From an uncultured virus (IMG/VR IMGVR_UViG_3300021197_001705) (lineage: Duplodnaviria; Heunggongvirae; Uroviricota; Caudoviricetes): a DNA stretch of 64,000 nucleotides. The translations under genes were made by a program, and so were the position numbers. The stretch lies in IMG/VR virus record IMGVR_UViG_3300021197_001705; one strand, given 5' to 3'. Shown in pieces: positions 1 to 30,638 of the stretch. The stretch's first letter is position 1; the number at the start of each line of letters is the position of its first letter. The notes beneath the pieces are model-generated. The model saw nothing but the letters and a program-made list of their open reading frames with translations. It was not told where the DNA came from and ran no database searches.

Positions 1-45
1 ACGTTCTACCCAGCCTGATACGATGAATGTTGTTTGTTTTGACAT
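1..45 (-). CDS. Hypothetical protein, 5' end only (MSKQTTFIVSGWVER..., runs off the window)
   Basis: ATG at 45 follows the AAGGAGAG RBS of repeat module 1. Confidence 0.6.
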   Translation of the reverse strand, partial: MSKQTTFIVSGWVER

Positions 46-50
46 GTTCT

Positions 51-113
51 CTCCTTGGTTGGTATAAGTAATATATGCTGTTTCGGTCTGAATGGGTAGG
101 ACAATTTATGTCC
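51..113 (-). promoter_or_regulatory. Repeated promoter module 1/10 (palindrome, TACCCA-N17-TATATT, RBS)
   Basis: Minus strand GGACAtaaatTGTCC TACCCA N17 TATATT ... AAGGAG. Confidence 0.8.
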
Positions 114-396
114 GTTGTGAGATTTTCTTTGCGAAGGCTTTTGCAAAAGCATGAGCTTTCTTTCTGTTCGTGAACAGCCTATTGCTGGGTACATACTTAA
201 TGTTACCCAAGGGCATAATTCTAAGAATATCATAGTATCGAGTCCCATCGCTATGTTTCTCCGATGCTACAAAAACGCAGCCTCCATAAGGTGGGGTCTT
301 TTGGTTTCGACGACCATGCTCAGCCTGCCAAGAAAAGTAGTGCCATCCTTGTGAGCGGCTGAAAGATTTTAGTTGTTTCATGTTGCGAAAGGTCAT
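106..396 (-). CDS. Hypothetical protein (96 aa)
   Basis: ORF starts after the RBS of module 2; stop lies inside the palindrome of module 1. Confidence 0.75.
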   Translation of the reverse strand: MTFRNMKQLKSFSRSQGWHYFSWQAEHGRRNQKTPPYGGCVFVASEKHSDGTRYYDILRIMPLGNIKYVPSNRLFTNRKKAHAFAKAFAKKISQRT

Positions 397-403
397 AAGT
401 TTT

Positions 404-465
404 CTCCTTGGTTATGTATGTAATATAGCCTGCTTGCGGGTACATGGGTAGGTCAATTTTTGTCC
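404..465 (-). promoter_or_regulatory. Repeated promoter module 2/10
   Basis: GGACAaaaatTGACC TACCCA N17 TATATT ... AAGGAG. Confidence 0.8.
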
Positions 466-629
466 GGTTTTAGGTTTTCGATGAAAAACTTGCTTATCCA
501 CTCTTCTTCGCCCTCGTCTTTCCACAACGGATCATAGTTCCACACGACACACACGCTGGTTCCGTTCTCTTCTACAATAATACCCACCGCTCCTGTTGGC
601 TTATGGGTTATGAGATCACCTACTTGCAT
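453..629 (-). CDS. VGDLV-family KOW/SH3-like mini-protein (58 aa, MQVGDLITHKPTGAVGII...LKPDKN)
   Basis: Translated by hand; GGAGG RBS; family N-terminal motif; below the ORF-track cutoff. Confidence 0.8.
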   Translation of the reverse strand: MQVGDLITHKPTGAVGIIVEENGTSVCVVWNYDPLWKDEGEEEWISKFFIENLKPDKN

Positions 630-769
630 ACTACCTCCAGACTATCTGGTCTTAACCATCGGTACGCACCATTATCACAGAACATTACTTCTATCAAGTC
701 GGGCCCTATCTGAACAATGAGGCCAACCATTCCATGGTATATTTCTTTAACCAAATTACCTACTTGCAT
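620..769 (-). CDS. VGDLV-family mini-protein (49 aa, MQVGNLVKEIYHGMVGLIV...LEVVCK)
   Basis: Translated by hand; GGAGG RBS; overlaps the start of the next gene. Confidence 0.8.
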   Translation of the reverse strand: MQVGNLVKEIYHGMVGLIVQIGPDLIEVMFCDNGAYRWLRPDSLEVVCK

Positions 770-969
770 ACTGCCTCCAAAAATTGGTCGATCCACCAGT
801 CATCGGCACAAATCTCTGTCTGACAACACAACCAATAGATTTTATATTGATATGCCTGCGTTCCATCAGGCTTCGGTCTATGGTAGGGTTTCCTTTTTAC
901 GATGGTTCCGAATAATTTACCATGACTCATGTGGTATTTATCTCTTGTTACCAGATCTCCTACTTGCAT
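760..969 (-). CDS. VGDLV-family mini-protein (69 aa, MQVGDLVTRDK...LEAVCK)
   Basis: ORF track 760..1020, start moved to the ATG at 969 after GGAG. Confidence 0.8.
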   Translation of the reverse strand: MQVGDLVTRDKYHMSHGKLFGTIVKRKPYHRPKPDGTQAYQYKIYWLCCQTEICADDWWIDQFLEAVCK

Positions 970-1118
970 ACTAACTCCAGATGTTTTGCATGTATGTGAC
1001 AATTGTAACCGTTGAGCCACTCGACCCAGACATGAAAACGATAACCTTTCCTATGCTTGGTGATGAGTCCCATGTTGCCATGACTGTCTTTTACTAAATT
1101 ACCTACTTTAAAATTCAC
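960..1118 (-). CDS. VGDLV-family mini-protein (52 aa, MNFKVGNLVKDSHGNMGLI...LELVCK)
   Basis: GTG start after the RBS of module 3; translated by hand. Confidence 0.75.
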   Translation of the reverse strand: MNFKVGNLVKDSHGNMGLITKHRKGYRFHVWVEWLNGYNCHIHAKHLELVCK

Positions 1119-1123
1119 TTGAT

Positions 1124-1186
1124 CTCCCTTGCTTATGTATATAATATAGCATGGTGGGTATCACATGGGTAGGTCATTTTTTGTCC
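1124..1186 (-). promoter_or_regulatory. Repeated promoter module 3/10
   Basis: GGACAaaaaaTGACC TACCCA N17 TATATT ... AAGGGAG. Confidence 0.8.
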
Positions 1187-1389
1187 GGTTTGTATTTTTT
1201 CAATTCTCTTGGATGGAATCGCGCCCCGCCTTGGTCTTCACCACTACGGGTATCATACCACTGGGCTTTAATGGGATAGGTTGAATCATCATGGATTTCC
1301 AATATAAGACCCCAGCCACCATACCAACCGTGGTTATGGTTCCTTGCTTGCCCATAAGCTGAGAGTTGTACTAAATCTCCTATTTTCAT
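1174..1389 (-). CDS. VGDLV-family mini-protein (71 aa, MKIGDLVQLS...KPDKK)
   Basis: ORF track; family motif; stop inside module 3. Confidence 0.8.
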   Translation of the reverse strand: MKIGDLVQLSAYGQARNHNHGWYGGWGLILEIHDDSTYPIKAQWYDTRSGEDQGGARFHPRELKKYKPDKK

Positions 1390-1570
1390 TTGGCACCTCC
1401 AATAAATCTACTCTATGAAAAATAACCGTACTGCCATCTGAAAACGCGATCAGCCATGTGTTAGATGGCTTCAATGTTTGTTTCACTTTTCTGACAACTA
1501 AGCCCACCTTGCCAACGTGACCAACCATAGCGGAACTCTTATTTATCCTCACTAAGTCTCCTATCTGCAT
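1334..1570 (-). CDS. VGDLV-family mini-protein (78 aa, MQIGDLVRINK...GKVGLVV)
   Basis: ORF track; KOW-like GDxV...GKVGxV pattern. Confidence 0.8.
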   Translation of the reverse strand: MQIGDLVRINKSSAMVGHVGKVGLVVRKVKQTLKPSNTWLIAFSDGSTVIFHRVDLLEVPNENRRFSTTLSLWASKEP

Positions 1571-1737
1571 ACCGCCTCCACTTCAAACCGCTCAAACCAA
1601 TTATCATCACACATATCACATACCCAACTGACGTAGTATATGGCCCTCTTTGTGCATACATCAGGCACTGTCTTAGTTATTACACCCAATACCTCATGGG
1701 GGTCGCCTTTCAATCTTACTAAGTCTCCTACTTTCAT
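1561..1737 (-). CDS. VGDLV-family mini-protein (58 aa, MKVGDLVRLKGDPHEVLGVI...VEAVCR)
   Basis: Translated by hand; GGAGG RBS. Confidence 0.8.
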   Translation of the reverse strand: MKVGDLVRLKGDPHEVLGVITKTVPDVCTKRAIYYVSWVCDMCDDNWFERFEVEAVCR

Positions 1738-1892
1738 ACTACCTCCAAATACCTCTCAGGATAAGAACACCTGACACCGTTCATCCACTCGACAACCTTT
1801 GCTTTATCGGTTCCAGGGATACAGCGAATGATAATACCACATTGTCCTATTTTGGTTTTGCTTTTGTATCTTACTAAATCACCTACTTGCAT
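1734..1892 (-). CDS. VGDLV-family mini-protein (52 aa, MQVGDLVRYKSKTKIGQCGII...YLEVV)
   Basis: Translated by hand; ATGA overlap with the next gene. Confidence 0.8.
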   Translation of the reverse strand: MQVGDLVRYKSKTKIGQCGIIIRCIPGTDKAKVVEWMNGVRCSYPERYLEVV

Positions 1893-2056
1893 AGCACCTC
1901 CAAGTAAGAGACAGAATATAATTCCATCTTTTTGGATTCAACATTCATAACTTTAACAACATCATATTTGCCAGTTCCCATTACAATAAACAATTGACCG
2001 AGCTTTGTTTCTGGATATGAAGAATTAATGTTTTTTACTAAATCGCCTACTTTCAT
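1883..2056 (-). CDS. VGDLV-family mini-protein (57 aa, MKVGDLVKNINS...LEVLCK)
   Basis: ORF track 1883..2089, start moved to the ATG after the RBS of module 4. Confidence 0.8.
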   Translation of the reverse strand: MKVGDLVKNINSSYPETKLGQLFIVMGTGKYDVVKVMNVESKKMELYSVSYLEVLCK

Positions 2057-2061
2057 TTGTT

Positions 2062-2123
2062 CTCCTTGGTTCTGTATACAATGTATCATGGTGGGTAGGA
2101 GTTGGGTAGGACAATTTATGTCC
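2062..2123 (-). promoter_or_regulatory. Repeated promoter module 4/10
   Basis: GGACAtaaatTGTCC TACCCA N17 TACATT ... AAGGAG. Confidence 0.8.
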
Positions 2124-3013
2124 TATTTCGCCCAGCTTTGGACCATCAGACGAGCATTTGCCCAAGCTTGGATATGCATGATGATTCCACGATCTTCAAG
2201 CTGTTCTAAGCTAAGCTTCTTAGCAAGGTAATCAAAGGCATCCTTGTAAGACGTGACCCACTCTTCTGTTAGTGGCTGCGCTGACTTGCCGATCACCTTG
2301 TCTAAGGAAAATTGCTGATGATAATAGCCTGTTTCTGCGTTTCTCTTGTTGATTATTTTTGAAAGAGATGTACCGTGAAGCTTGTTTTTTAGTGAAAGAC
2401 GATGATCTTTTCCGTCAACCATGACCCTAACGTCAATATGTTGGGCATACCGCTGCCAATCCCATCCACAGTCATAAGCAGTCATAACATTTAAGCTATC
2501 CCAATTAACGGAGGTGATGAGTCCAATGTATTCAGTCTTAACATTCTTACTCCCAACCCACTGACTTCGGGAAACTTGCACCGCTGCCCCTATATCAATG
2601 CCATGCTCTTTAACGAGAATGTTGTATGCAGCCCTTCGCCAGTTCTCATTAGCTTTGTAGCACTGCTTAAGAAACTCTTCCATCTCTGAGCAGTTACGAC
2701 GAGTGTGACCAGCATCACCACAAAAACCACAGTGTCTGGTTGTCGATCTTTTAGCCTTGACCTTTTGTGCATTGCGCTGTTGAAGTTCCACAGTCTTTTT
2801 ACACTCTTCATACCAAGCACCCCAATACTTTGGATACTTTATCCAATGGGCTTGTACCTTTGAGGTCTTCAATGGTATTTGATAAGTGGTAAAGTGTGCC
2901 CAGTCTTCTGGTGCATGAGGGCAGTTGGATCTATTGTGTCCTGTGTTGCGGCAATAGCCACAAGCGTTACTGCTTCTGTTTGATGGGCTGCTCTTTTCTT
3001 CAAATATTTTCAT
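2123..3013 (-). CDS. Protein with two CCHC zinc knuckles (296 aa)
   Basis: CGYCRNTGHNRSNC and CGFCGDAGHTRRNC match CX2CX4HX4C. Confidence 0.8.
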   Translation of the reverse strand: MKIFEEKSSPSNRSSNACGYCRNTGHNRSNCPHAPEDWAHFTTYQIPLKTSKVQAHWIKYPKYWGAWYEECKKTVELQQRNAQKVKAKRSTTRHCGFCGDAGHTRRNCSEMEEFLKQCYKANENWRRAAYNILVKEHGIDIGAAVQVSRSQWVGSKNVKTEYIGLITSVNWDSLNVMTAYDCGWDWQRYAQHIDVRVMVDGKDHRLSLKNKLHGTSLSKIINKRNAETGYYHQQFSLDKVIGKSAQPLTEEWVTSYKDAFDYLAKKLSLEQLEDRGIIMHIQAWANARLMVQSWAK

Positions 3014-3019
3014 CGTGTT

Positions 3020-3081
3020 CTCCTTGGTTCTGTATACAATGTATCATGGGCAGGGGTAGATGGGTAGGTCAGAAAATGTCC
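3020..3081 (-). promoter_or_regulatory. Repeated promoter module 5/10
   Basis: GGACAttttcTGACC TACCCA N17 TACATT ... AAGGAG. Confidence 0.8.
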
Positions 3082-3084
3082 GGC

Positions 3085-3351
3085 TTAAAAATACATCTCG
3101 GAATGTAGGTTCTGGTCGAAGTTAGCCAAAACCTCTTTTAATGTTAATCCGTTTCCGCCACCCACTTCAACCCAGTCAAGTATCTCGCCCGTTGGAGAAG
3201 CAGAAAAAACCAGCGTCTCTTTTAGGGCTGTGTTCTCTGATACTATATAAAAATTTCCCTTATGGTGCACCAGCACTCTTGTTATCTTGCCATTTTTGTT
3301 TCCAAGGCCAAGTTTAAATGGCAGCGGCACCTCTTCAAATATAATATCCAT
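3085..3351 (-). CDS. Hypothetical protein (about 88 aa, MDIIFEEVPLPF...)
   Basis: 3' part of ORF 3085..3591; ATG lies just after the stop of the upstream gene. Confidence 0.65.
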   Translation of the reverse strand: MDIIFEEVPLPFKLGLGNKNGKITRVLVHHKGNFYIVSENTALKETLVFSASPTGEILDWVEVGGGNGLTLKEVLANFDQNLHSEMYF

Positions 3352-3359
3352 ATCAGTCC

Positions 3360-4064
3360 CTATTTTTTGGTCTTTGGTGTGCGATTCTTCTTTAAATCGC
3401 ATTCTAAGATATAATAAATCAACGTGCTGCCGACTGGCATAACAGAGTAAACCCTTGCGCCACCTTGCTTTGGTTTGTATTGAAGCGCAGTAGTGATGGG
3501 TTTTGCGTTTGCCTTGATGATCAAACAAGGGTGGCTGTTGAGGTTCTCGATCCCAGCTTGCTCCTCTTCGGTGCTTCTTCTTTGGCTCCATATCCGATTG
3601 ATACCAGTAGAGCGTATTTTTATCAAGTCACCTGCTGAATACAGAGGTGGTTTACTGTGGCTATCCCATACCTTATCAGCGTATTTGTTATTTATCATTT
3701 TGGAAAAAGAGTGGTACGGTGGCAAATCATTCTTGTCATTACTCTTTAATGCTATCAGTGTTTGTGTCGCTGCTCTAACGTAGTATTGTCCGGCCCCTTG
3801 GTAATATCGAGACACGACCTCCACCTTTTCCCTAAACTCCTTATCTGTGGTAAAGCGTTCAAAGTATTCATTAAAATCCACCAACGCTGCTTTACAATTA
3901 TCAAGCATAAGTTTGTTCAAGTAGTCCCATTGGCGATCTGATAGACACCCTCGGCTGTCAAGTTGCGTTTTCATATCAGCCATAACCTTTACGGATCTAA
4001 GTCTTCCCATTTGTTCTGCTCTTTCAATCGCTGCTGCGATCTCTTCTGATGTTCTTCTTCTCAT
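3360..4064 (-). CDS. Hypothetical protein (234 aa) with a C-terminal AGDLI SH3-like domain
   Basis: ORF after the RBS of module 6; YSAGDLIKIR...YYILECDLK resembles the mini-protein family. Confidence 0.75.
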   Translation of the reverse strand: MRRRTSEEIAAAIERAEQMGRLRSVKVMADMKTQLDSRGCLSDRQWDYLNKLMLDNCKAALVDFNEYFERFTTDKEFREKVEVVSRYYQGAGQYYVRAATQTLIALKSNDKNDLPPYHSFSKMINNKYADKVWDSHSKPPLYSAGDLIKIRSTGINRIWSQRRSTEEEQAGIENLNSHPCLIIKANAKPITTALQYKPKQGGARVYSVMPVGSTLIYYILECDLKKNRTPKTKK

Positions 4065-4069
4065 GGTTT

Positions 4070-4131
4070 CTCCTTGGGTCTACATATAACATAGCATGGT
4101 GGGTGCTACATGGGTAGGTCATTTTTTGTCT
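4070..4131 (-). promoter_or_regulatory. Repeated promoter module 6/10
   Basis: AGACAaaaaaTGACC TACCCA N17 TATGTT ... AAGGAG. Confidence 0.75.
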
Positions 4132-4283
4132 GGTTTTAAATGATTGGGGTGGAAAGTTTGAGAGCTTCCATCTGGAAAAGCAACCACCGATCTGCCACCC
4201 CATATCTTAATTATGATGCCAACCTCGTGATAGCCGAAGTCTCGCATCCTTTTGGTTGGTACTATTAAATCACCTACTTTCAT
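4119..4283 (-). CDS. VGDLV-family mini-protein (54 aa, MKVGDLIVPTK...LKPDKK)
   Basis: Translated by hand; stop inside module 6. Confidence 0.8.
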   Translation of the reverse strand: MKVGDLIVPTKRMRDFGYHEVGIIIKIWGGRSVVAFPDGSSQTFHPNHLKPDKK

Positions 4284-4476
4284 GCTCACCCTCTTTTGGG
4301 ATGAGATTGATTTGGGATGGATGATACGCTCCCCAATCTCCGTCGAAAAAGGTTACAAAGATGCTACATCCACTCTCCAAGCCCCAAGCATCCTCAATCT
4401 CAGTGATCACACCTATGAACCTTTCTTGGCTCGGGTGAGCGTTACGATATACCCAGACCAGATCACCTACTTGCAT
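4270..4476 (-). CDS. VGDLV-family mini-protein (68 aa, MQVGDLVWVY...)
   Basis: ORF track; GGAGG RBS. Confidence 0.8.
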   Translation of the reverse strand: MQVGDLVWVYRNAHPSQERFIGVITEIEDAWGLESGCSIFVTFFDGDWGAYHPSQINLIPKEGEHESR

Positions 4477-4637
4477 ATTACCTCCATATCCTCTTCATAT
4501 TCGCAGCACTCATAGCCACAAGGGTAGGCCACCCGAATCAAAGGCGACCCCTCGTTATAATCATTGTCGGGCAAAAACCCAATGATCATACCATAGTCCT
4601 CAAAATAAGGCACATAGACCAAATCACCCACTTTCAT
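4467..4637 (-). CDS. VGDLV-family mini-protein (56 aa, MKVGDLVYVPYFEDYGMII...MEVICK)
   Basis: Translated by hand. Confidence 0.8.
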   Translation of the reverse strand: MKVGDLVYVPYFEDYGMIIGFLPDNDYNEGSPLIRVAYPCGYECCEYEEDMEVICK

Positions 4638-4828
4638 GCAAGCACACTAACGGTCGATGCCCAAGACCACCTTGTTCCTTTTAGGGTCTTGGCTGATACG
4701 CACCTCACTTTTAGACGTTTGGGGCTGCTACGGTTGGTGCGAACAGCTACAACCACAAACTGCTCTCCTATGTAGCGATGCTTGTACCTTACTAAGTCAC
4801 CTACTTTTACTAAATCATTTATTTTCAT
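4634..4828 (-). CDS. VGDLV-family mini-protein (64 aa, MKINDLVKVGDLVRY...)
   Basis: ORF track, start moved; duplicated N-terminal motif. Confidence 0.75.
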   Translation of the reverse strand: MKINDLVKVGDLVRYKHRYIGEQFVVVAVRTNRSSPKRLKVRCVSAKTLKGTRWSWASTVSVLA

Positions 4829-5012
4829 TTTCGTTCTCCATGGCATCAAAAATGGCGGTTTCTAATATTTCTACTTCGTGAAGGTATCTTCCGGCTGCTC
4901 TTAGGTCACCTACGCTTTGGGCTTGAAAAGCCTTTTCTCGTAAAGATGCAAGCTTGTCTTTGTTCTTTTCAAGAACAGTCTTCAGTCCAAACAGTTTACG
5001 AATCCATTTCAT
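4815..5012 (-). CDS. Small helical hypothetical protein (65 aa)
   Basis: ORF track; GGAGGTG RBS. Confidence 0.75.
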   Translation of the reverse strand: MKWIRKLFGLKTVLEKNKDKLASLREKAFQAQSVGDLRAAGRYLHEVEILETAIFDAMENENENK

Positions 5013-5172
5013 TGATCACCTCCAAAAAGTAAGTTGAATGGTTGCTTACAGCACCATCGGCCCAAACGACTTCTACTTCGCCATCATCACCAAGCTCCTC
5101 TGGATCGATGCAGGTGACAACACCTACACAAAGATCATCCATATCGTATCTTACTAAGTCACCTACTTTCAT
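4996..5172 (-). CDS. VGDLV-family mini-protein (58 aa, MKVGDLVRYDMDDLCVGVV...LEVINEMDS)
   Basis: Translated by hand. Confidence 0.8.
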   Translation of the reverse strand: MKVGDLVRYDMDDLCVGVVTCIDPEELGDDGEVEVVWADGAVSNHSTYFLEVINEMDS

Positions 5173-5228
5173 TGGTCACCCCACGTTCTCCACATTCTTT
5201 CTTCTTCTTCATGTTCATTCATTTTGTT

Positions 5229-5290
5229 CTCCTTGGTTATGTATATAGTATATCACAGGCAGGGGTAGGTGGGTAGGACATTATTTGTCC
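5229..5290 (-). promoter_or_regulatory. Repeated promoter module 7/10
   Basis: GGACAaataaTGTCC TACCCA N17 TATACT ... AAGGAG. Confidence 0.8.
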
Positions 5291-5499
5291 GTTACCCAAG
5301 GGGTCAGATGCGTATAGTCACACCAACTCTCGCTCTCATGGTTCTTAACTGGTCTGACGACATATAAAGTACTACCACAGGAGATAGAAACAGGGTCTAA
5401 AACCTTTATCACAATGGCTGGATTTGGGCATTTTAACTTGCCATTCCAGCCAATGCCGACCAAGTCACCAACTTTATACTTAGCTGGTTCGTGCTTCAT
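5281..5499 (-). CDS. VGDLV-family mini-protein (72 aa, ...YKVGDLVGIG...VTDK)
   Basis: ORF track; stop inside module 7. Confidence 0.8.
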   Translation of the reverse strand: MKHEPAKYKVGDLVGIGWNGKLKCPNPAIVIKVLDPVSISCGSTLYVVRPVKNHESESWCDYTHLTPWVTDK

Positions 5500-5656
5500 T
5501 GATCACCTCCATCTCATAACTAAAAACTTCGACCAATTCAGGGTCTGTGATAATCGACACGCGCCATGAGCACTCATCAGCAAAAACCTCGCCCTTCTCC
5601 ATTACAATAGCATACTCCTTCCAATCTGGAATATAGATCAAGTCCCCGATCATCAT
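5480..5656 (-). CDS. VGDLV-family mini-protein (58 aa, MMIGDLIYIPDWKEYAIV...MEVINEARTS)
   Basis: Translated by hand; ATGA overlap with the upstream gene. Confidence 0.75.
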   Translation of the reverse strand: MMIGDLIYIPDWKEYAIVMEKGEVFADECSWRVSIITDPELVEVFSYEMEVINEARTS

Positions 5657-5823
5657 GGTCTTGTACAGAGGCCAGCCTTAATAAGCCCGCTGGCAACTCT
5701 ACCGTAATGCCCTTGGAGGGTCCAAGCATGACCTGTGTTAATAAGCTCTTGAAAGAAATCTATTACTTCATCTTCCTGCATCTCTCCATTTTCATATCGT
5801 ATTATCTTGTCAATATCAATCAT
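5653..5823 (-). CDS. Small hypothetical phage protein (56 aa, MIDIDKIIRYENGE...AWTLQGHYGR)
   Basis: 3' part of ORF 5653..5976; start follows the RBS of module 8. Confidence 0.75.
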   Translation of the reverse strand: MIDIDKIIRYENGEMQEDEVIDFFQELINTGHAWTLQGHYGRVASGLIKAGLCTRP

Positions 5824-5829
5824 CACACC

Positions 5830-5891
5830 CTCCTTGGTTGTGTTAGTATTATAACCCAGACAGGGGTGGGTAGGTAGGACATTATTTGTCC
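5830..5891 (-). promoter_or_regulatory. Repeated promoter module 8/10
   Basis: GGACAaataaTGTCC TACCTA N17 TATAAT ... AAGGAG. Confidence 0.8.
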
Positions 5892-5972
5892 GTTTTTCTC
5901 TTCGTGGTTGCTTGGACGCATACCATTCGCTACTTGCCCTTGACCGCAATATTGCTCTCCTAAGTGTCTTAC

Positions 5973-6767
5973 TCATTTATTATCCCTGTTTAGCCAGTTC
6001 TTGACAAGGGTGTCAATTGCTGCATACGCTTTGTGTTCGCGAGAAAGACTGCTAAGCACATATTCAATCTCTGAGTTTTCTTTGCTTTCCAGCCACCCAG
6101 TAGGCGGCTGCCATGGAGCACTACAAACAATATCAGTTGTTACATTGCCCCATCGTGATAAAGTTAGGCCGTTATCAACAAACGGCTGGATTTTATTGAA
6201 TGGCCAATTAACCTGCTTGTAATCCGCACAGTCTACAACAACCATGTTGGGTACGGTTCTGTATTTGTCTTGATTGGGCCAAGCAGAAAATATGTTTAGG
6301 CTGTCCATGTTAAAAGCAGTAACTATTCCCCTTAATTTATCGTCATCTGCTGCATACCACATGATTGAGGCTCTCGGAAACTCAATGAGTGACCCTATAC
6401 CTATTCCAGTCTCATTAACAAGTTCAACAAACTCTTTTTTCCAGATTTGGTTTGCTCTATATATTTTTTTTCTAAAAGACTTGTGTTTGGTACAAGTAGT
6501 TCTCCTGTGGCCTGCCTCTCTACAAAAAGAACAGCGCGAGCTTTTCTTGACATTCTTACGGTTTTTTCTTTTTTGTTTTCGGTCGGCTCTATTCTTCATT
6601 TCGTATATAGCCCGTCTTTGGGTGAGCGTTAGACTTGTTGTGTCTTGGTTGTTCTTTGCGATGGTCTGGAATACTTCCTCGACGTGGTTACAGGAGGAAA
6701 CATTGTGTCCCCTTTTGCCACAAAAGCTGCAACGTACAGTTCCTGACCCCCACTCTATGCCTATCAT
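5973..6767 (-). CDS. Protein with two CCHC zinc knuckles (264 aa), paralog of 2123..3013
   Basis: CSFCGKRGHNVSSC and CSFCREAGHRRTTC; shared ANxxW, GIxIG and DSLN blocks. Confidence 0.8.
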   Translation of the reverse strand: MIGIEWGSGTVRCSFCGKRGHNVSSCNHVEEVFQTIAKNNQDTTSLTLTQRRAIYEMKNRADRKQKRKNRKNVKKSSRCSFCREAGHRRTTCTKHKSFRKKIYRANQIWKKEFVELVNETGIGIGSLIEFPRASIMWYAADDDKLRGIVTAFNMDSLNIFSAWPNQDKYRTVPNMVVVDCADYKQVNWPFNKIQPFVDNGLTLSRWGNVTTDIVCSAPWQPPTGWLESKENSEIEYVLSSLSREHKAYAAIDTLVKNWLNRDNK

Positions 6768-7009
6768 CTCGAAACCCTAACGATTGTCAGCTTTCCTCTA
6801 AGCAAAGTTCCAGTTATCCCGTCTACTGGCGTGTGTTCGCCATCAGCAATAGCTCTGACTAAGTGCGTGACTTCATGGCCTGAGACATTGCTTAGCTTAA
6901 TGGCACCAACAAAATCATTTAGCTCACCTCTCCATATACCAGATTTATCGAGCCAATTCTGCCTGATAAAGGTTATTGCTTCTTTGATCGCTTCAAGTTT
7001 TTCATTCAT
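6764..7009 (-). CDS. Hypothetical protein (81 aa)
   Basis: ATG after the RBS of module 9. Confidence 0.7.
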   Translation of the reverse strand: MNEKLEAIKEAITFIRQNWLDKSGIWRGELNDFVGAIKLSNVSGHEVTHLVRAIADGEHTPVDGITGTLLRGKLTIVRVSR

Positions 7010-7014
7010 ACTAT

Positions 7015-7076
7015 CTCCTTGGTTGTGTACATAATATATCATGCTCGGGGGTAGGTGGGTAGGACATTAATTGTCC
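7015..7076 (-). promoter_or_regulatory. Repeated promoter module 9/10
   Basis: GGACAattaaTGTCC TACCCA N17 TATATT ... AAGGAG. Confidence 0.8.
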
Positions 7077-7249
7077 TTTTTGATTATATTCTGAAAATAG
7101 CTGTATGCTTTGGCCGCTATCTGAATGGTTTCGTACACCATCAGGGGCTGTTCTGGCCTGACTTGGATTGCATACATTCCGAGATCATAACTTGAGAGTT
7201 CTTCGTACTTACCTAAGTGTTTTTTTGTTATTTTAAATGGCCTAATCAT
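7067..7249 (-). CDS. Hypothetical protein (60 aa)
   Basis: AAGGAGA RBS; stop inside module 9. Confidence 0.7.
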   Translation of the reverse strand: MIRPFKITKKHLGKYEELSSYDLGMYAIQVRPEQPLMVYETIQIAAKAYSYFQNIIKKDN

Positions 7250-7535
7250 TGGCTTTCTCCTTTGCAAGTAAAATATACTCTATGTAGTTAGGCGGAACCG
7301 ATTTAACAACCAATCGCCAACCCATATATTTAGGCGGGAAAGGTTTTTTTAACTTAAAGAGTGATGATGTGGCGTTGTGTTCGCTCTCGATAATAGCAGT
7401 CAGGTGTGTGCTGGTGTCATCACTCTCGAAACGGACCCAAAATCGGTTATCGGTATGTTCTACCATGTCCCTCATAAGAGCCGCTTCTGCTTCCTCTTTA
7501 GGGGCCTTTTCCCCTCCAAAAAATAAACTACTCAT
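7242..7535 (-). CDS. Hypothetical protein (97 aa)
   Basis: GGAGG RBS before MSSLFF. Confidence 0.7.
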   Translation of the reverse strand: MSSLFFGGEKAPKEEAEAALMRDMVEHTDNRFWVRFESDDTSTHLTAIIESEHNATSSLFKLKKPFPPKYMGWRLVVKSVPPNYIEYILLAKEKAND

Positions 7536-7659
7536 TGTTACCTCCAATGGAAAGCAGTATTGTGGTTAAAACTAAACAAGAAATCAAGAAAGCCCATCTT
7601 GGATCGGCCACTACGATAAGAAGTGCAACTGATATTAAAATAATTAGGTTGTTTTTCAT
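7528..7659 (-). CDS. Small two-helix membrane protein (43 aa, MKNNLIILISVALLIVVADPRWAFLISCLVLTTILLSIGGNNE)
   Basis: Translated by hand; first gene after module 10. Confidence 0.65.
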   Translation of the reverse strand: MKNNLIILISVALLIVVADPRWAFLISCLVLTTILLSIGGNNE

Positions 7660-7665
7660 CACACT

Positions 7666-7725
7666 CTCCTGTCTTGTCTATAATGTATCATAGTAGGTAG
7701 TATGCGGGTAGGACATTATTTGTCC
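7666..7725 (-). promoter_or_regulatory. Repeated promoter module 10/10
   Basis: GGACAaataaTGTCC TACCCG N17 TACATT ... AGGAG. Confidence 0.75.
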
Positions 7726-8090
7726 TTTTTTTTATATTTGCGTTTTTTATTTCTTTTATTAACTGCTTTTCTGCCTTTCCGCTTCCACTCTTTCTTGACT
7801 TTACGAGATGGACGCTTATTGATCTTTTTTCTTTTTTTGTGTTTGGGGACTCTTCGTATCGCTTTCTTTTTCTTTTTACGCTTTATTTTACGCTTGGATG
7901 TCGGGCTTTGTGACCCAACTGTGGGTTGCGATGGTTGGGCCTCTTCGTGATACTCTTCTACGTTGTACACTGTGATCTCTGACTGGGTTGCGTAGTGATT
8001 ATCCTTTATGAGAACTCGCATTGCACAAGCTTCGTAGAAAGGCGCCATCATAAAAGCTGAAATTGCTATAAACTTCTTAAAGTAACTCAT
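7716..8090 (-). CDS. Protein with a signal-peptide-like N-terminus and a very Lys/Arg-rich C-terminal half (124 aa)
   Basis: ORF track; amino-acid composition. Confidence 0.65.
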   Translation of the reverse strand: MSYFKKFIAISAFMMAPFYEACAMRVLIKDNHYATQSEITVYNVEEYHEEAQPSQPTVGSQSPTSKRKIKRKKKKKAIRRVPKHKKRKKINKRPSRKVKKEWKRKGRKAVNKRNKKRKYKKKDK

Positions 8091-8344
8091 GTCTCATCCT
8101 GTGTGAATACGTCGGACGGGAAAACCCATGTACACTTGCCATAACTTACAAAGTGTACTCGAAGATGATCGCCAACGCTTGTTTGTAGAAACTCCACCAC
8201 TATTCCTATTTCTTCTTCTGGTGGGGTGTTAATGAAAAGTGTATTTATTGTGCTCCTTACCTTGACAAGTTTTCCTTGCCACCATCTACGCTTATGTTCT
8301 ATATCCTCGAAAGACTTAGATAAGTGAGAATTATTAAAATTCAT
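8087..8344 (-). CDS. SH3-like small protein (QGKLVKV...EIGIVVE)
   Basis: ORF track; divergent family member. Confidence 0.65.
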   Translation of the reverse strand: MNFNNSHLSKSFEDIEHKRRWWQGKLVKVRSTINTLFINTPPEEEIGIVVEFLQTSVGDHLRVHFVSYGKCTWVFPSDVFTQDET

Positions 8345-8544
8345 TTACTCGTGAAAACGCCGGAGAGTGCCCCTATGTCCATTAGGTTAGAGTAGTGCGT
8401 GTCTGACCACGCAACATAACAAACGTGCACCCCCCGTGGGTATCCGAGTAGTACGGTACTGTCTGTAGTGACCACGCCAATTCGATTAGTACTTATGTGC
8501 ATTACCAAATCTCCAATATAATATTTTTTCACTTCCTTCTCCAT
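8341..8544 (-). CDS. VGDLV-family small protein (YYIGDLVMHIS...RIGVV)
   Basis: ORF track, start moved downstream of the TTGACA promoter. Confidence 0.7.
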   Translation of the reverse strand: MEKEVKKYYIGDLVMHISTNRIGVVTTDSTVLLGYPRGVHVCYVAWSDTHYSNLMDIGALSGVFTSK

Positions 8545-8579
8545 ATATAATATGTAACACGTTTCCTTTTGTTTGTCAA
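8545..8579 (-). promoter_or_regulatory. Possible sigma70-type promoter
   Basis: TTGACA-N17-TACATATTAT with TG in the extended -10 position. Confidence 0.5.
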
Positions 8580-8782
8580 CCTTTAATCCGGCCTTTGACC
8601 ATCTCGCAGGGTACAATATACACGCACCCCTCTATGATCGAAAAAACTTGATAGAACTCATATAACCGATGGTACATGGGTATGGTGGAAGATAAAATTA
8701 CTGCTATCTCCCTAAAGTTTTTGTCGTCATCAATAATCACAAGATCACCCTTAACATATATTTCTTTCTTTTCGATACCCAC
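8576..8782 (-). CDS. VGDLV-family small protein (YVKGDLVIID)
   Basis: ORF track. Confidence 0.7.
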   Translation of the reverse strand: MGIEKKEIYVKGDLVIIDDDKNFREIAVILSSTIPMYHRLYEFYQVFSIIEGCVYIVPCEMVKGRIKG

Positions 8783-10578: not shown

Positions 10579-10860
10579 TCATCCCCTAAGTAATTGTCTA
10601 TTTGAGCTTAATATCTTGGCCTCTATTAAGGCCGGGTCCCCCACTACTGTAATAGTCTCTCTACCATCACTGGAAGCAAAAGATAAATCTGAAAATCGAG
10701 CCACAGAGTTAAGACCAATCTGGATTTTTCCTTCCATCATCGCCACTTTCATTTGATCGTTTTCAGAAATAAAGAGTATCTTTGCTGGGTTGATCCTTAC
10801 CTCGGAGAGATAAAATTCACCAGAATGTGTCTTATTTATTTTGTTTAGTTTTATGAACAT
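10579..10860 (-). CDS. Hypothetical protein (possibly FlbD-like small beta protein)
   Basis: MFIKL...INPAKILFI pattern. Confidence 0.55.
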   Translation of the reverse strand: MFIKLNKINKTHSGEFYLSEVRINPAKILFISENDQMKVAMMEGKIQIGLNSVARFSDLSFASSDGRETITVVGDPALIEAKILSSNRQLLRG

Positions 10861-11065
10861 TGTAGTCTCCCACTAATTGTAAACATTTGTTGTTTATGAT
10901 CCAAGCTTGCTCGTTCACAAAGACTTTAGTCTCAGTGTCGTTTTCTTTTTTTATGACAACGCCGTATTGCGGTGTCTTAAGCCTTTTTACAAACCAAGGC
11001 TCTAAATTGACAGGGTAAAGAAACGTATCTTGCCTTACCCTGACAAGGTCGCCCTTAGTCAGCAT
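10832..11065 (-). CDS. VGDLV-family small protein (MLTKGDLVRV...YGVVI)
   Basis: ORF track. Confidence 0.7.
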   Translation of the reverse strand: MLTKGDLVRVRQDTFLYPVNLEPWFVKRLKTPQYGVVIKKENDTETKVFVNEQAWIINNKCLQLVGDYNVHKTKQNK

Positions 11066-11396
11066 CTGGCTCTTCTGTTACGCGCTCGGGCATGGGCTCA
11101 GGTGCGGGTACGGGGGTAGAAGGTTTTGGCTCAAGGATGCCTACGTAGCCATTAAGAATGGATGACATATCTTCTACCATTTGGTCGATATCCGACACTT
11201 GTCGCTTTATTTCTAAAAGCATCTCTAATACTAACTGGTATTTTAAAGCTGAATTGGAAACTATTTCTGAGGCAGACTCCGCATCCATAGATAATTCCGA
11301 TACTTTACCAATTTCTTTTCTTATATCAGACATCATGTCTGTTAGTTTTTCAGGAACCTCATCGAGGTTCACTGCATGGTTGATTCTTACTTTCAT
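11055..11396 (-). CDS. Coiled-coil hypothetical protein (113 aa)
   Basis: AGGAGG RBS; helical heptad pattern. Confidence 0.75.
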   Translation of the reverse strand: MKVRINHAVNLDEVPEKLTDMMSDIRKEIGKVSELSMDAESASEIVSNSALKYQLVLEMLLEIKRQVSDIDQMVEDMSSILNGYVGILEPKPSTPVPAPEPMPERVTEEPDAD

Positions 11397-11705: not shown

Positions 11706-13271
11706 TTAAGATACAATAGCATGACTGGTGGTAATCAAAGTGGATGCGACTGAGACAGCGTTCTGTAACGCACAACGAGTCACCTTGGCGGGGTCTACTA
11801 TGCCTTCCTCAAGCATGTTTACAATGGTGCCAGTCATGAAATTATAGCCCATATTCGGGGCGCACTGCCTTACCCTAGCAACAAGAATATCAGGCGATTT
11901 TCCGGCGTTTTTAGCCATTTGTCGCAGAGGTTCTTCAATGGCCTCAAGGACAATCTTGGCACCAATAGACTGCTCTTCGGACTCCGTTCGCACAAGTAGA
12001 TCTTGTGTTGCTCGAATCAAAGCTATGCCACCACCTGAAACGATTCCTTCTTCCTGTGCTGATCTTACAGCCTCCAAAGCATCATCAATCCTGTGTTTCT
12101 TTTCCATCATTTCAATCTCTGTTGCTGCTCCGACTCGAATCACAGCCACACCAGAAGCAAGACGAGTAATCCGTTCTTGGATTCTCTCACAGGCTTTGAT
12201 GTCGTCTGTTTGTTTGATCTCTGCTTTCAGTGCTTCAATTCTGTTTTCTGTTTCTTCTTCTGGACCTTTTGCACCGACAATAGTACTCCACCCTTTGTTG
12301 ATAGATATCGATTTGCAATTACCAAAGTGAGGCAATTGTACCTGTCTCAGGGGTATTCCGTTTTCTCTTGTTATGAATGTGGCCCCAGTCTTCAAAGCCA
12401 TATCCTTTAATATGTTCCTTCTTTCTTCTCCATATCTGGGGGGCTTAACCGCAACTATTTTCATTGTACCGCGAACTGCATTGGCAATAACAGCAGCCAA
12501 GGCTTGACCTTCCACATCTGCAACAATCAATAACGGACTGTTGTCTCTTGATGCAAGCTCAAGGGTGGGTAGTATTTGCTCGATGGTCTCAATCTTCTCA
12601 TCTGTGATTAGAATAAGGGGGTTGTTATATTCAATGGTCCCTGATCGTTCGTTATTGATGAAGGTGGAAGACAGATACCCAGAATCAAAACGGAAACCTT
12701 CGATCAAATCGAGAGACGTATTGATGGAGTTAGCTTCCTCCACAAGAACAGAGCCATCTTTACCTGCTGAATCAACTGCTGTGGCTATCAAAGTACCTAT
12801 TGATTTGTCGTTGTTAGCTGAGATCGTAGCAATGTGCCGAATATCTTCCTCCGATCGAATTGGGGTGGACATTTCACTCAAGCGATCAACAATAAGGTTT
12901 GTGGCATTGTCCATTCCACGTTTGATTTCAACTGGGGAGACCCCGGCCATAAGGTATTTTTGGGCTCTCTGTAGGATTGCTCTAGTTAGAACAGTGGCGG
13001 TTGTAGTGCCATCACCAGCTTTTGTAGCAGACTGTTCTGCCGCTTGTTTTACAATCTGTGCTCCCACATTTTCCATCGGATCTTCAAAATCCACAAACTT
13101 AGCAACAGTTACTCCATCTTTTGTGATGACAGGGATACCCTGCTCCTTATGAAATAGTATTACGTTGCGACCCTTTGGTCCGAGAGTCGTAGCTACGTTG
13201 TCTGCCAGTTTATTAATCCCAGACAGAATCTTTGTGTTGAGTTCCTGTCCGTTGCTATAATGTTTTGTCAT
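11706..13271 (-). CDS. groL: Chaperonin GroEL (lacks the GGM tail)
   Basis: TLGPKGRNV, ITKDGVTVAK, AGDGTTTATVL, GIVSGGG, DPAKVTRCALQNA. Confidence 0.97.
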   Translation of the reverse strand: MTKHYSNGQELNTKILSGINKLADNVATTLGPKGRNVILFHKEQGIPVITKDGVTVAKFVDFEDPMENVGAQIVKQAAEQSATKAGDGTTTATVLTRAILQRAQKYLMAGVSPVEIKRGMDNATNLIVDRLSEMSTPIRSEEDIRHIATISANNDKSIGTLIATAVDSAGKDGSVLVEEANSINTSLDLIEGFRFDSGYLSSTFINNERSGTIEYNNPLILITDEKIETIEQILPTLELASRDNSPLLIVADVEGQALAAVIANAVRGTMKIVAVKPPRYGEERRNILKDMALKTGATFITRENGIPLRQVQLPHFGNCKSISINKGWSTIVGAKGPEEETENRIEALKAEIKQTDDIKACERIQERITRLASGVAVIRVGAATEIEMMEKKHRIDDALEAVRSAQEEGIVSGGGIALIRATQDLLVRTESEEQSIGAKIVLEAIEEPLRQMAKNAGKSPDILVARVRQCAPNMGYNFMTGTIVNMLEEGIVDPAKVTRCALQNAVSVASTLITTSHAIVS

Positions 13272-15698: not shown

Positions 15699-16313
15699 TT
15701 AGTTAATAATTGTATCTGCAATACCATATTCTACAGCTTCTTCTGCTGTGAGGTAAACATTAACCTTACGATCCAGCAATTTCTGAATTGTGCGCTTAGT
15801 CATGCATGTTTCCTTTGATAAAGCATTAATATATAGTTCTTGAATGTTCTTTATGGACTTAATTTCATTTTCAATATCGTGCAATTCACCGGCAGAACCT
15901 GCGGCTACTGCGTGGATCATGACTCTACAATGTCGACCGATCTTCCTTTGGCCTTTGGTTCCAGCAGCCAGTATTAGTGTTCCAGCCGACATAACCTTAC
16001 CAAGACCAATTGTGTGAATCTCGCACTTTGTCTTAGTTAGCGACATCATATCATAAATGGAGAACATTTCGTCAGCAGAGCCACCGTAGGTTGAAAGGTA
16101 CATCTTTATTGGCTCATAAGGAGCCTCTTTGGGGCTAAAGTCCGTAAGCATTAACAGGCCCATGCACAAATCGCCTGCTTTTTCCTCATCTACATCACCA
16201 AACATTGCAATCGTTCTGATCTCTGGTTGTTGGGCTCCACCTAGAAGTTCCATTAGATCTTCTTTCGTTTCTTTTTCCTCGGTCTTAGGTTTGTCTGTTA
16301 TCTTAATCATCAT
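15699..16313 (-). CDS. clpP: ClpP-like protease subunit (copy 1)
   Basis: STYGG, VMSAG (catalytic Ser), MIH, YLTAEEAVEYGIAD. Confidence 0.92.
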   Translation of the reverse strand: MMIKITDKPKTEEKETKEDLMELLGGAQQPEIRTIAMFGDVDEEKAGDLCMGLLMLTDFSPKEAPYEPIKMYLSTYGGSADEMFSIYDMMSLTKTKCEIHTIGLGKVMSAGTLILAAGTKGQRKIGRHCRVMIHAVAAGSAGELHDIENEIKSIKNIQELYINALSKETCMTKRTIQKLLDRKVNVYLTAEEAVEYGIADTIIN

Positions 16314-23770: not shown

Positions 23771-23798
23771 AATATAACATGTTTGGATCACTTGTCAA
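23771..23798 (-). promoter_or_regulatory. Sigma70-type promoter
   Basis: TTGACA-N16-TATATT with TG extension. Confidence 0.6.
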
Positions 23799-24031
23799 GA
23801 GATTATTCTTAAATAACTGCAACAAATAAAACAAATACCGCTACCGTCTAGCCAGTGAACTTGTGCAGCGCTATCGCGGCCCAATTCTACAGATATTTTC
23901 AGAATTACGCCATATGATCCGGGAGACAACCATGCACCATCACCGTCAGACATGGCGTAGTATCGAACCAGATCACCAACTTTAAAAAATGTAGATTTTT
24001 CCGATATGTTTTCTTGAGATGGCAAATTCAT
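23795..24031 (-). CDS. VGDLV-family small protein (FKVGDLVRYY...YGVIL...VHW)
   Basis: ORF track. Confidence 0.7.
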   Translation of the reverse strand: MNLPSQENISEKSTFFKVGDLVRYYAMSDGDGAWLSPGSYGVILKISVELGRDSAAQVHWLDGSGICFICCSYLRIIS

Positions 24032-24185
24032 TAACTCCGAATATAGACTGAATCAACCATATTCTGATTGTGTCTGTCTGAAGGCACTCTTCTGTGCAAA
24101 GTCCCCTAGCTCCTTTTGGTATTGGCCCACAAGCTTCTATAAATGCTATCGATTTTCCCTTTATCCGCCTCACTCTATGCCCCAC
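23982..24185 (-). CDS. Small hypothetical protein
   Basis: ORF track; fits the gene packing. Confidence 0.45.
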   Translation of the reverse strand: MGHRVRRIKGKSIAFIEACGPIPKGARGLCTEECLQTDTIRIWLIQSIFGVNEFAISRKHIGKIYIF

Positions 24186-24463
24186 TCACAATCACACGGG
24201 TCACAGTCGCAAGCCACACACGGCTTGTAATCTATCGGGTATTCTCTCAATTCTTCCTCGAACAGCATGATCTCTGTACCATTGACTAAAACCAAATAAT
24301 CAAAAAAGAAACTGACCATAGATAAAGGCATTTCTGGTACTGGTAGTGAGATAACTTCGACTATAACTCCAAGCTCGCCATTGATTATGTGCTTGTACCC
24401 TATCACACCGTCTAACCCCGTTAAAACAACCAAATCACCAACTTTAAATTTATTTTTATGCAT
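24170..24463 (-). CDS. VGDLV-family protein with a Cys-rich tail (CVACDCDPCDC)
   Basis: ORF track. Confidence 0.72.
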   Translation of the reverse strand: MHKNKFKVGDLVVLTGLDGVIGYKHIINGELGVIVEVISLPVPEMPLSMVSFFFDYLVLVNGTEIMLFEEELREYPIDYKPCVACDCDPCDCEWGIE

Positions 24464-27880: not shown

Positions 27881-28165
27881 TTACCACTCTTTGGGGTCTC
27901 GAATGACCATTTTTTCCACTGATTTATTATTTTCTTCATCTTTGTCCATCCTCATAATAAATTGAATTGGTATCCTCTTAATTAGTTCATCACCCAGCAT
28001 TATATCATATGCTATGTAGTATCCCTCTGGTTCTTGGCCTCCCGGTAATCCCATACTATAAGGCCCTTTTACTATCACACCGTATTTCATCTCCCAGTCT
28101 CCGGCCATAACTTTTCCGAAATCACTTAGCTCCACAAGATCTCCAACTTTGAACTTATGTCCCAC
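27881..28165 (-). CDS. VGDLV-family protein (MGHKFKVGDLVELS...YGVIV)
   Basis: ORF track; GAGG RBS. Confidence 0.75.
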   Translation of the reverse strand: MGHKFKVGDLVELSDFGKVMAGDWEMKYGVIVKGPYSMGLPGGQEPEGYYIAYDIMLGDELIKRIPIQFIMRMDKDEENNKSVEKMVIRDPKEW

Positions 28166-28886
28166 CTCGCAGTTTCCTGTATGAATTAACAGTCACAGGC
28201 CATAGATCTGTTGCTATTTCCAAGCAGGCCTCCGCCACTTTTTGAATCTCCCATTGCGCTCCTTCGTGTGTGCGAAGGTCAATAAACTTCAAGAGGTTGG
28301 ATAAATTGACTGTGCCGTAGTATTCAGTGTAGAGGTTCTGTGGTAGAACTCCGCGAGCTTGTTCTCTACATACTCCTTTGTCAATGAGTGTATAAAAAAG
28401 CTTTAGACTTGATTCGTGATGAACTTTTACCACTTCAGACGCGGTTCTCGTTTTAGTTGGGATAACTGAATTGTATATACGACTCCAATTAGGATCTATT
28501 AACTCGTCTGGGTTGGAAGCTTGTCGGTTTGACTTGTGTTGCGTTCTGAATTGCTTTGGTTCATAAAATTGTAGATCCTTGTCGGTATATCTTCTAGAAA
28601 TCTCATTGTAGGACCATGTTCTATGGCGATGGTGCTGAGAACGAACGAACAAAGGCACAACAAATTTAAAGGTAACAAGATTATGTTCCAATGTAGAGGT
28701 GTGTCTATGCTTGATAAGGTAATTAATAAGTCGCTTGTCACGCCCATCAAGATCAGACTTTTGCACACCAAAACTAACCCTTGCGCTGTTAACAACGGTA
28801 ATGTCGCTGCCCATATGATCAACGTAACATACCGAACCAATACTGTCACTATATAAATTGATACTTTTATCATACTCTTCCATCAT
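28155..28886 (-). CDS. thyX: FAD-dependent thymidylate synthase
   Basis: NSARVSF, HTSTLEH, RHRTWSYNEISRRY, EQARGVLP, AQWEI. Confidence 0.97.
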   Translation of the reverse strand: MMEEYDKSINLYSDSIGSVCYVDHMGSDITVVNSARVSFGVQKSDLDGRDKRLINYLIKHRHTSTLEHNLVTFKFVVPLFVRSQHHRHRTWSYNEISRRYTDKDLQFYEPKQFRTQHKSNRQASNPDELIDPNWSRIYNSVIPTKTRTASEVVKVHHESSLKLFYTLIDKGVCREQARGVLPQNLYTEYYGTVNLSNLLKFIDLRTHEGAQWEIQKVAEACLEIATDLWPVTVNSYRKLRGGT

Positions 28887-30514: not shown

Positions 30515-30538
30515 TTTATCCTCCGGTTTTTTAAAATG

Positions 30539-30638
30539 NNNNNNNNNNNNNNNNNNNNNNNNNNNNNNNNNNNNNNNNNNNNNNNNNNNNNNNNNNNNNN
30601 NNNNNNNNNNNNNNNNNNNNNNNNNNNNNNNNNNNNNN
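30539..30638. other. Assembly gap (100 N)
   Basis: Run of N. Confidence 1.

Follow-up and report, generated by a model that had tools for sequence, protein, structure and literature searches.

A chained array of small genes in a marine T4-like phage encodes a predicted family of SH3-like mini-proteins and apparently evolves by cassette exchange

Introduction

Near one end of a 64,000-nucleotide stretch of DNA from an uncultured virus (IMG/VR record IMGVR_UViG_3300021197_001705; the whole stretch is called the window below), 16 small genes encoding proteins of 49-78 amino acids (aa) are packed on the minus strand between positions 453 and 5656. What kind of protein do these genes encode, what holds them together in one chain, and what might a phage gain from so many versions of one small protein? 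A first-pass annotation, made from the DNA letters, had read the array as a library of KOW/SH3-like beta-barrel binders with a constant scaffold and variable loops, expressed from a dedicated class of promoters. Here we recovered all 16 genes on the minus strand and at the sizes given, and we present evidence that they form one diverged family, that neighbouring genes are joined by dual-coded junctions, and that whole genes are exchanged at these junctions between related phages.

Results

Members share a start motif and diverged interiors

The motif [VIL]G[DN][LIVM][VIL] occurred 24 times in the minus-strand frames of the window, compared with twice in its plus-strand frames, and alignment of the array members gave the consensus MKVGDLV...GxxGxI...VxW..G...LEV. 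Using profiles built from the other 15 members to search the 1038 window open reading frames (ORFs) of at least 30 aa, we recognised 14 of the 16 at an expectation value (E) below 1e-3. Six members were still found at E < 0.02, and three at E < 1e-5, after the first seven residues had been removed. The shared start described in the first-pass annotation was thus confirmed, but its statement that the interiors are unrelated was too strong: they appear to be highly diverged yet related.

The same annotation had put the family at about 25 members in the window by adding nine outside the array. Profile searches upheld four of these, at 8087, 8341, 23795 and 27881 (E < 0.01), left those at 10832 and 24170 marginal, and returned E values of 0.1-6 for those at 8576, 8793 and 18916. 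Profile matches therefore support a family of 20-22 members in the window (Table 1).

No Pfam or PHROGs family reached its own cut-off with any of the 16 array members. Sub-threshold matches were to SH3-C_UBE2O (0.002), which was the sole match of SH3 type, Tad2-like (0.11), HAS-barrel (0.18), phrog_9237 (0.004) and phrog_1690 (0.008); the Pfam models for KOW (PF00467), Tudor, Agenet and PWWP matched none of the 16 at E ≤ 1.

Two members are predicted to form the same five-strand barrel

With an alignment of 24 family sequences, AlphaFold2 folded the member at 1561-1737 into five strands at a predicted local distance difference test score (pLDDT) of 93.9. The member at 5281-5499, the most divergent of the 16, took the same strand order with an 83-sequence alignment (pLDDT 84.3); it was folded on the family alignment because a homologue search gave only two matches. 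Both models have the Tudor-like topology of a bent five-strand barrel, and the KOW-type motif that spans strands 1-2 of SH3-like barrels (G-D-x-V ... G-x-x-G-x-V) is present in the family consensus as MKVGDLV...GxxGxI. The SH3/KOW-like five-strand barrel proposed earlier was thus borne out in both members folded, the two predictions converging on a common barrel.

Structure comparison placed Tbtudor (6if4) at Z 8.5 (TM score 0.78) for the 1561-1737 model and at Z 8.8 for the 5281-5499 model. The MRG15 chromo-barrel (2f5k) reached 7.4 and 9.0, respectively, the latter being the best match of the 5281-5499 model. The Spt5 KOW fold was matched at Z 8.0, and both models also matched a PWWP domain, R67 DHFR, HspQ, the NusG KOW domain, NdhS and PsaE. 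These Z values lie in the range that the tool calls 'common' for small barrels, and we therefore name the fold class and not a family. In the ESM Atlas the matches were viral clusters without names, and DsrB at 0.90. Among PDB sequences, the family profile aligned weakly with the KOW regions of uL24 (E 0.002) and NusG (E 0.012), and with the DNMT3B PWWP domain at E 1.6e-5, summed over two copies. On these models the family would be one five-strand SH3-like barrel, nearest to the Tudor, chromo-barrel and KOW domains. Mimicry of the cyanobacterial proteins PsaE, NdhS and PetP was considered separately and found to be without support, with psbA present in none of five relatives while the control was positive.

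How close are these relatives? Like the KOW domains of NusG/Spt5 and uL24, the N-terminal half of the members reads x-V-G-D-x-V...G-x-x-G-x-I/V, in line with the profile and fold matches. Unlike them, the members stand alone, without an NGN domain or ribosomal context, are present in 12-27 copies per genome, and have no Pfam KOW match. The royal family of Tudor, chromo-barrel and PWWP domains supplied the best structural matches of both models (Z 8.5-9.0), and among the repeat proteins that the profile matched there are Tudor_5, Agenet or SGF29 domains; this likeness is set against the lack of a Pfam Tudor match in the 16 members and against Z values common among small barrels. A further parallel is offered by GoF, MotB.1 and Frd.2, small early proteins of T4 whose wild-type function is unknown, and which the accessible part of Kim et al. 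(2025; PMC12152347) describes as having an 'LSm-like fold', that is, as small bent beta-barrels of very dissimilar sequence. There is no sequence relation to these proteins, however, as a search of the T4 genome with family profile A4 came out empty at E ≤ 1, and T4 has three scattered genes where the window has a chained array. In the Sm/LSm fold a helix at the N-terminus precedes a bent sheet of five strands; neither of our models has such a helix.

These likenesses raise the alternative that the mini-proteins bind nucleic acids as KOW, Tudor or LSm domains do, and tune transcription elongation, mRNA stability or translation. The sequence-level matches to uL24 and NusG KOW regions and to a PWWP domain point in this direction, as do fold matches that include Spt5/NusG KOW and a PWWP domain bound to single-stranded DNA; moreover, about 57 of 146 members collected from six genomes are basic, with an isoelectric point (pI) above 8. 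On the other hand, 49 of the 146 are strongly acidic (pI < 5), which fits a uniform nucleic-acid role poorly, and the failure of the Pfam KOW model, the empty T4 search and the missing Sm/LSm helix all count against it. We judge this explanation unlikely.

A constant scaffold carries variable loops

For the reading that we prefer, a repertoire of small binding modules, the distribution of conserved and variable positions is of particular relevance. In a conservation profile of the 146 members, the residues kept most often were G4 (144/145), L6 (139), D5 (130), G19 (118/143) and W/F37 (102/135), with V/I7, V/I35 and L51-E52-V53 as further kept core positions. Insertions were concentrated after profile positions 12, 27 and 42, which correspond to three loops, and these loops varied in sequence, length and charge; within the window, the pI of members ranged from 4.1 to 11.1. 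The ratio of nonsynonymous to synonymous substitution rates (dN/dS), determined for 26 orthologue pairs, was 0.13 in strands and core and 0.28 in loops and tails. The constant scaffold with variable loops thus held up, and in the loop-versus-core comparison proposed with it the loops were freer, yet under purifying and not positive selection.

Array genes carry ribosome-binding sites and are under purifying selection

As a reference for orthologue and turnover comparisons we used G001, a close relative represented by a virus record of 185,652 bases (92% complete) whose array DNA is ∼92% identical to that of the window. Thirteen orthologue pairs gave dN/dS values of 0 to 0.33. When ten array pairs were concatenated (641 codons), dN was 0.043 and dS 0.303, a ratio of 0.14, with single pairs ranging from 0.04 to 0.33.

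A Shine-Dalgarno core (GGAG, GAGG or AGGA) was found at −17 to −4 of 13 of the 16 member starts, compared with 40 of 196 ATG triplets (20%) on the same strand. Two of the three starts without this core are coupled to the preceding ORF through overlapping stop and start codons; the third, that of 4996-5172, is preceded by no more than a weak GGGGTG and is coupled likewise to a leader ORF of 17 aa. Judged from sequence, the array genes are real, equipped with ribosome-binding sites and under purifying selection. Such strong use of Shine-Dalgarno sites suggests a host that uses them.

Neighbouring genes are chained by dual-coded junctions

The codons of the last strand, L-E-V, read (C/T)TG GAG GT and contain the GGAGG ribosome-binding site of the next gene. 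Where a member ends in ...V-C-K-stop (GTA TGC AAG TAG), this ending overlaps the next start, ATG CAA GTA GG (M-Q-V-G), by 10 nucleotides (nt); where it ends in ...(I-N-)E-S-R-stop, the overlap with ATG AAA GTA GGT GA (M-K-V-G-D) is 14 nt. The last genes of operons end differently, in K-P-D-K-K/N-stop, which is at the same time the hairpin CCGGACAAAAAATGA of the intergenic cassette, and these genes have IENL, HLKP or ELKK as relaxed forms of LEV. The conserved C-terminus (LEV, VCK, KPDKK) is therefore largely imposed by the signals of the next gene or by the cassette hairpin, a point missed earlier. More generally, conserved protein termini in arrays of this kind can mirror overlapping translation signals and not protein function.

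An exhaustive profile search returned 3009 proteins at E ≤ 1e-3; the best 150 divided equally between mini-proteins that stand alone and proteins of several repeats. Within these best 150, 76 stood alone and had up to 90 aa; the motif was at the start in 71 of them, while 22 ended in xCK/xCR and 29 had an ending of LEV-IN type, so that the chaining of genes is general. Most of 19 repeat proteins that we scanned had matches to Tudor_5, Agenet, DUF1918, PsaE, SH3_15, KOW or DUF4314, and one had a match to CHAP. All 64 matches of near-member length were metagenomic, unnamed proteins, and a tblastn search with member 1561-1737 gave nothing at E ≤ 0.01.

Proteins P0001, P0011 and P0032 hold three to five barrel units per chain, each unit starting M-(K/E)-F-K-V-G-D, as if changes of frame at the junctions had fused an array. 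A search for longer fused forms through a word index found none, which is weak evidence; the exhaustive search did yield multi-repeat proteins.

Promoter-like cassettes separate the operons

An element of ∼68 nt had ten pattern matches in the window, all on the minus strand at 95-7725 where 0.04 were expected, and none in the other 56 kb. Its parts follow a fixed order: the upstream stop codon, a hairpin GGACA-N5-TGnCC, an invariant TACCCA, 17 nt, a −10-like box TAyAyT (often preceded by TG), AAGGAG and the start codon. The dedicated promoter class of the first-pass annotation is thus present as a repeated cassette in ten copies, a putative promoter by its sequence layout.

The same order of parts (stop, stem-loop, promoter boxes, Shine-Dalgarno site, start) is described for the repeated PeSL (promoter-early stem-loop) elements of T4-type phages in the accessible text of Arbiol et al. 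(2010; PMC2839356) and Comeau et al. (2014; PMC4122927). As in the PeSL-bearing hyperplastic regions described there, the cassettes of the window are concentrated among small ORFans, and the indels and replacements that distinguish close relatives have their ends at conserved motifs. The window differs from these descriptions in having TACCCA and not TTGACA at the −35 place, in a hairpin of only 5 bp, and in that most breakpoints lie in the coding junction between members and not in the cassette.

Whole cassettes are gained, lost or replaced at the junctions

The count of family copies in related genomes, which had been suggested as a check, gave 12-27 copies in each of four near-complete relatives. 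Per whole related record the numbers of matches were 18 (G001), 22, 12, 27 and 24, and one 88%-complete record had none. The DNA pattern of the junction was found at 47 IMG/VR loci on 29 contigs; 46 of the 47 loci had at least three members, with up to 22 in 8 kb and always on one strand. The 146 members fell into 118 clusters at 60% identity, and only one pair within a genome exceeded 60%.

Comparison of the arrays of the window and G001 revealed five differences, each a gain, loss or replacement (Table 1); they are given without polarity, as either genome may have changed. By the ends of the BLAST matches, all ten breakpoints lay within ∼25 nt of the start codon of a cassette; two adjoined a PeSL-like element and the remainder fell in the coding junction. 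Consecutive BLAST matches overlapped by 5, 16 and 30 nt in G001, and two deletion joints there were chimeras in which the partner switched inside the junction or the GDLV codons. From the breakpoints and the chimeric joints we infer that cassettes are exchanged by recombination in the conserved junction. Many joints at cassette starts were also seen in contigs from four marine DNA runs and were discarded; their matching sides of 20-25 letters reflect the shared junction motif and are no proof of rearrangement.

Another reading of such mobility is that the cassettes are chiefly cargo, selfish or near-neutral, which the junction makes easy to duplicate and move while single copies add little fitness. 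Whole cassettes have indeed been gained or lost between phages that are 92% identical, junction motifs are common to many marine metagenome contigs (a weak point, given the short matching sides), and a comparable ORFan region could be lost from a cyanophage in culture, according to the accessible part of PMC4503421. Neutral cargo would, however, be hard to square with a dN/dS of 0.14 overall and 0.07-0.14 in the core, with fold-defining residues kept over 146 members, and with the high copy number in each of the four near-complete genomes. We consider it improbable.

The tight coupling suggested one more alternative, in which neighbours form hetero-oligomers or act as accessory proteins of the virion or its assembly. 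Overlaps of 4, 10 or 14 nt would give near-equal amounts of neighbouring proteins, and the fused relatives with three to five units per chain do exist. Yet close relatives carry different sets of cassettes, which is not how the parts of a fixed complex behave; moreover, the structural genes occupy 46-64 kb of the window, a long way from the array, which is preceded by promoter-like cassettes of its own. This explanation appears very improbable.

The source is a marine T4-like myovirus

All genes of the window are on the minus strand. They encode a gp23-type capsid protein and T4-type baseplate, tube and sheath proteins, which identify a large myovirus, together with a DnaE-type polymerase, a GroEL-like chaperonin, ClpP, ThyX, RecA and a gp32-like protein; a search for tRNA genes found none. 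By capsid protein, the nearest named phages (42-54% identity) are an uncultured 484-kb phage, Flavobacterium phage immuto, Microcystis phage Mel-JY01 and Rhodothermus phage RM378. The stretch was seen in seawater and marine metagenome runs, with at least half of the sampled words in six runs from three studies, and no RNA run was among the sequencing runs listed as containing it; blastn with positions 1-6000 had no match among GenBank phages. We conclude that the source is a marine T4-like myovirus of ∼190 kb, with the array in a hyperplastic accessory region.

Several neighbouring genes deserve mention. Inside the array region, and each behind its own cassette, lie two paralogous minus-strand genes for proteins of 296 aa (2123-3013) and 264 aa (5973-6767), each with two CCHC zinc-knuckle-like motifs and no Pfam family above cut-off. 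The ORF at 5653-5976 (minus), a DUF7417 gene, includes a promoter-like cassette, and the Pfam match covers only residues 57-106; its start is probably at 5823 or 5826 and not at 5976. Further away, the genes for the GroEL-like chaperonin, ClpP and DnaE-type Pol III alpha (11706-13271, 15699-16313 and 19147-22578, all minus) are an unusual set for the T4-like capsid lineage. The minus-strand ORF 29912-32464 looks like a fusion of ribonucleotide reductase and ClpP protease, spans 100 N at 30539-30638, and is probably an artefact of this masked stretch joining two genes. The capsid protein (59358-61241, minus) has 627 aa, of which mainly residues 336-611 match the Gp23 family, leaving a long N-terminal part outside the match.

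Table 1. Positions of array members, further family members and promoter-like cassettes in the window, with differences from G001
Feature	Position	Strand	Remark
Family member, 58 aa (MMIGDLI...)	5480..5656	-	Leave-one-out E 0.035; G001 orthologue dN/dS 0.33
Family member, 72 aa, most divergent of 16; motif at residues 9-15	5281..5499	-	Leave-one-out E 0.45; AlphaFold2 barrel
Leader ORF, 17 aa, acidic, directly behind cassette	5169..5222	-	TGA overlaps ATG of gene 4996-5172
Family member, 58 aa, acidic, pI 4.1	4996..5172	-	
Non-family ORF, 65 aa, inserted in chain	4815..5012	-	Absent from G001
Family member, doubled N-terminal motif (MKINDLVKVGDLV), basic, pI 11.1	4634..4828/4849	-	Leave-one-out E 9.5e-4
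Family member, 56 aa	4467..4637	-	Absent from G001; deletion joint inside GDLV codons there
Family member, 68 aa	4270..4476	-	...HESR* tail overlaps next MKVGD by 14 nt
Family member, 54 aa, last gene of operon	4119..4283	-	KPDKK* tail enters cassette hairpin
Family member, 57 aa, first gene behind a cassette	1883..2056	-	
Family member, 52 aa	1734..1892	-	
Family member, 58 aa, first one folded	1561..1737	-	AlphaFold2 pLDDT 93.9, five strands
Three genes taken together	1561..2056		Replaced by three other members in G001
Family member, 78 aa	1334..1570	-	
Family member, 71 aa, last gene of operon	1174..1389	-	KPDKK* tail
Family member, 52 aa, GTG start, first behind a cassette	960..1118	-	Replaced by two other members in G001
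Family member, 69 aa	760..969	-	
Family member, 49 aa	620..769	-	Absent from G001; joint there is a chimera of both flanking junctions
Family member, 58 aa, last gene of operon	453..629	-	KPDKN* tail
Two further members (8087-8344, 8341-8631)	8087..8631	-	E 0.0022 and 0.0081 (profile A3); G001 orthologues
Further member outside array	23795..24052	-	E 6.7e-8; G001 orthologue dN/dS 0.18
Further member, longer C-terminal tail	27881..28192	-	E 0.0058 and 2.5e-4 (two profile searches)
Marginal member	10832..11077	-	E 3.3e-3 and 1.1e-3 (two profile searches)
Marginal member, Cys-rich tail	24170..24463	-	E 4.1e-3 and 3.7e-3 (two profile searches)
PeSL-like cassette	47..113	-	
PeSL-like cassette	397..465	-	Downstream of array
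PeSL-like cassette	1119..1186	-	Heads 960...453 operon
PeSL-like cassette	2057..2123	-	Heads 1883...1174 operon
PeSL-like cassette	3014..3081	-	
PeSL-like cassette	4065..4131	-	One hairpin mismatch
PeSL-like cassette	5223..5290	-	Hairpin GGACA-N5-TGTCC, TACCCA, 17 nt, TATACT, AAGGAG, start
PeSL-like cassette	5827..5891	-	Heads DUF7417 gene and members 5480, 5281
PeSL-like cassette	7010..7076	-	
PeSL-like cassette	7663..7725	-	

Discussion

On balance we lean towards reading the array as a repertoire of small binding modules that is made before the structural genes and used in interaction with the host. It would represent an accessory multigene family of stand-alone SH3-fold (KOW/Tudor-like) mini-domains in a hyperplastic region. 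The resemblance of the cassettes to early/middle terminator/promoter units (PeSL) suggests expression ahead of the structural genes, and the variable loops of each paralogue may bind a different host or phage macromolecule. The array probably evolves by cassette shuffling, as between relatives it is whole cassettes that come, go or are replaced, and the breaks fall in the conserved junction; a repertoire that changes in this way could adapt the phage to one host strain or another, whether by host takeover or by counter-defence.

Several points weigh against this interpretation. An SH3-like fold alone is no proof of protein binding, and such folds also bind RNA, DNA, peptidoglycan and cofactors. 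The members folded were two of the 16, both on family-derived alignments, the others being placed by alignment. The loops, while freer, are under purifying and not positive selection, and there is no arms-race signature between orthologues; the source of diversity is old paralogues and whole-cassette swapping, not fast loop evolution. The family profile matched none of the four nearest cultured or named phages by capsid (immuto, Mel-JY01, LR756508 and RM378). Finally, the cassette lacks a canonical −35 box, with TACCCA in its place, and a consensus scan for sigma-70 promoters and terminators showed no enrichment and did not have the cassettes among its matches. The early timing is therefore an analogy, and because the −35 place is not sigma-70-like, another factor may read TACCCA.

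A bolder extension of the binding-module reading, which we hold to be possible rather than probable, concerns the junction itself. The conserved coding junction, in which LEV contains the ribosome-binding site and the stop codon falls within the start of the next gene, and which includes the GDLV codons, would be a selected crossover site, and the array an integrase-free cassette-exchange system for trading ready-to-express binder genes across marine phages, whose repertoire sets which host strains or defences are overcome.

Hyperplastic regions, PeSL cassettes and small barrel-type early proteins were already known. The host-takeover module of Bacillus phage SPO1, in the available part of its description (26 small genes; bioRxiv 10.1101/569657), is likewise made up of closely packed small genes with a presumed role in redirecting the host; the SPO1 genes are mutually unrelated, whereas most of the block described here belongs to a single fold family. 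Searches of the literature, by motif and for arrays of SH3-like paralogues in phages, did not turn up this family, its copy number or the dual-coded recombining junction.

Large phages give much of their variable-region space to small genes of unknown role. Here ∼20 such genes belong to a single fold family and come with a clear evolutionary mechanism, in which chained, dual-coded junctions go together with whole-cassette exchange. If its members bind distinct host proteins, the array would amount to a natural collection of minimal binding scaffolds, each ∼55 aa long, and would give access to the way in which uncultured marine phages adapt to the strains of their hosts.

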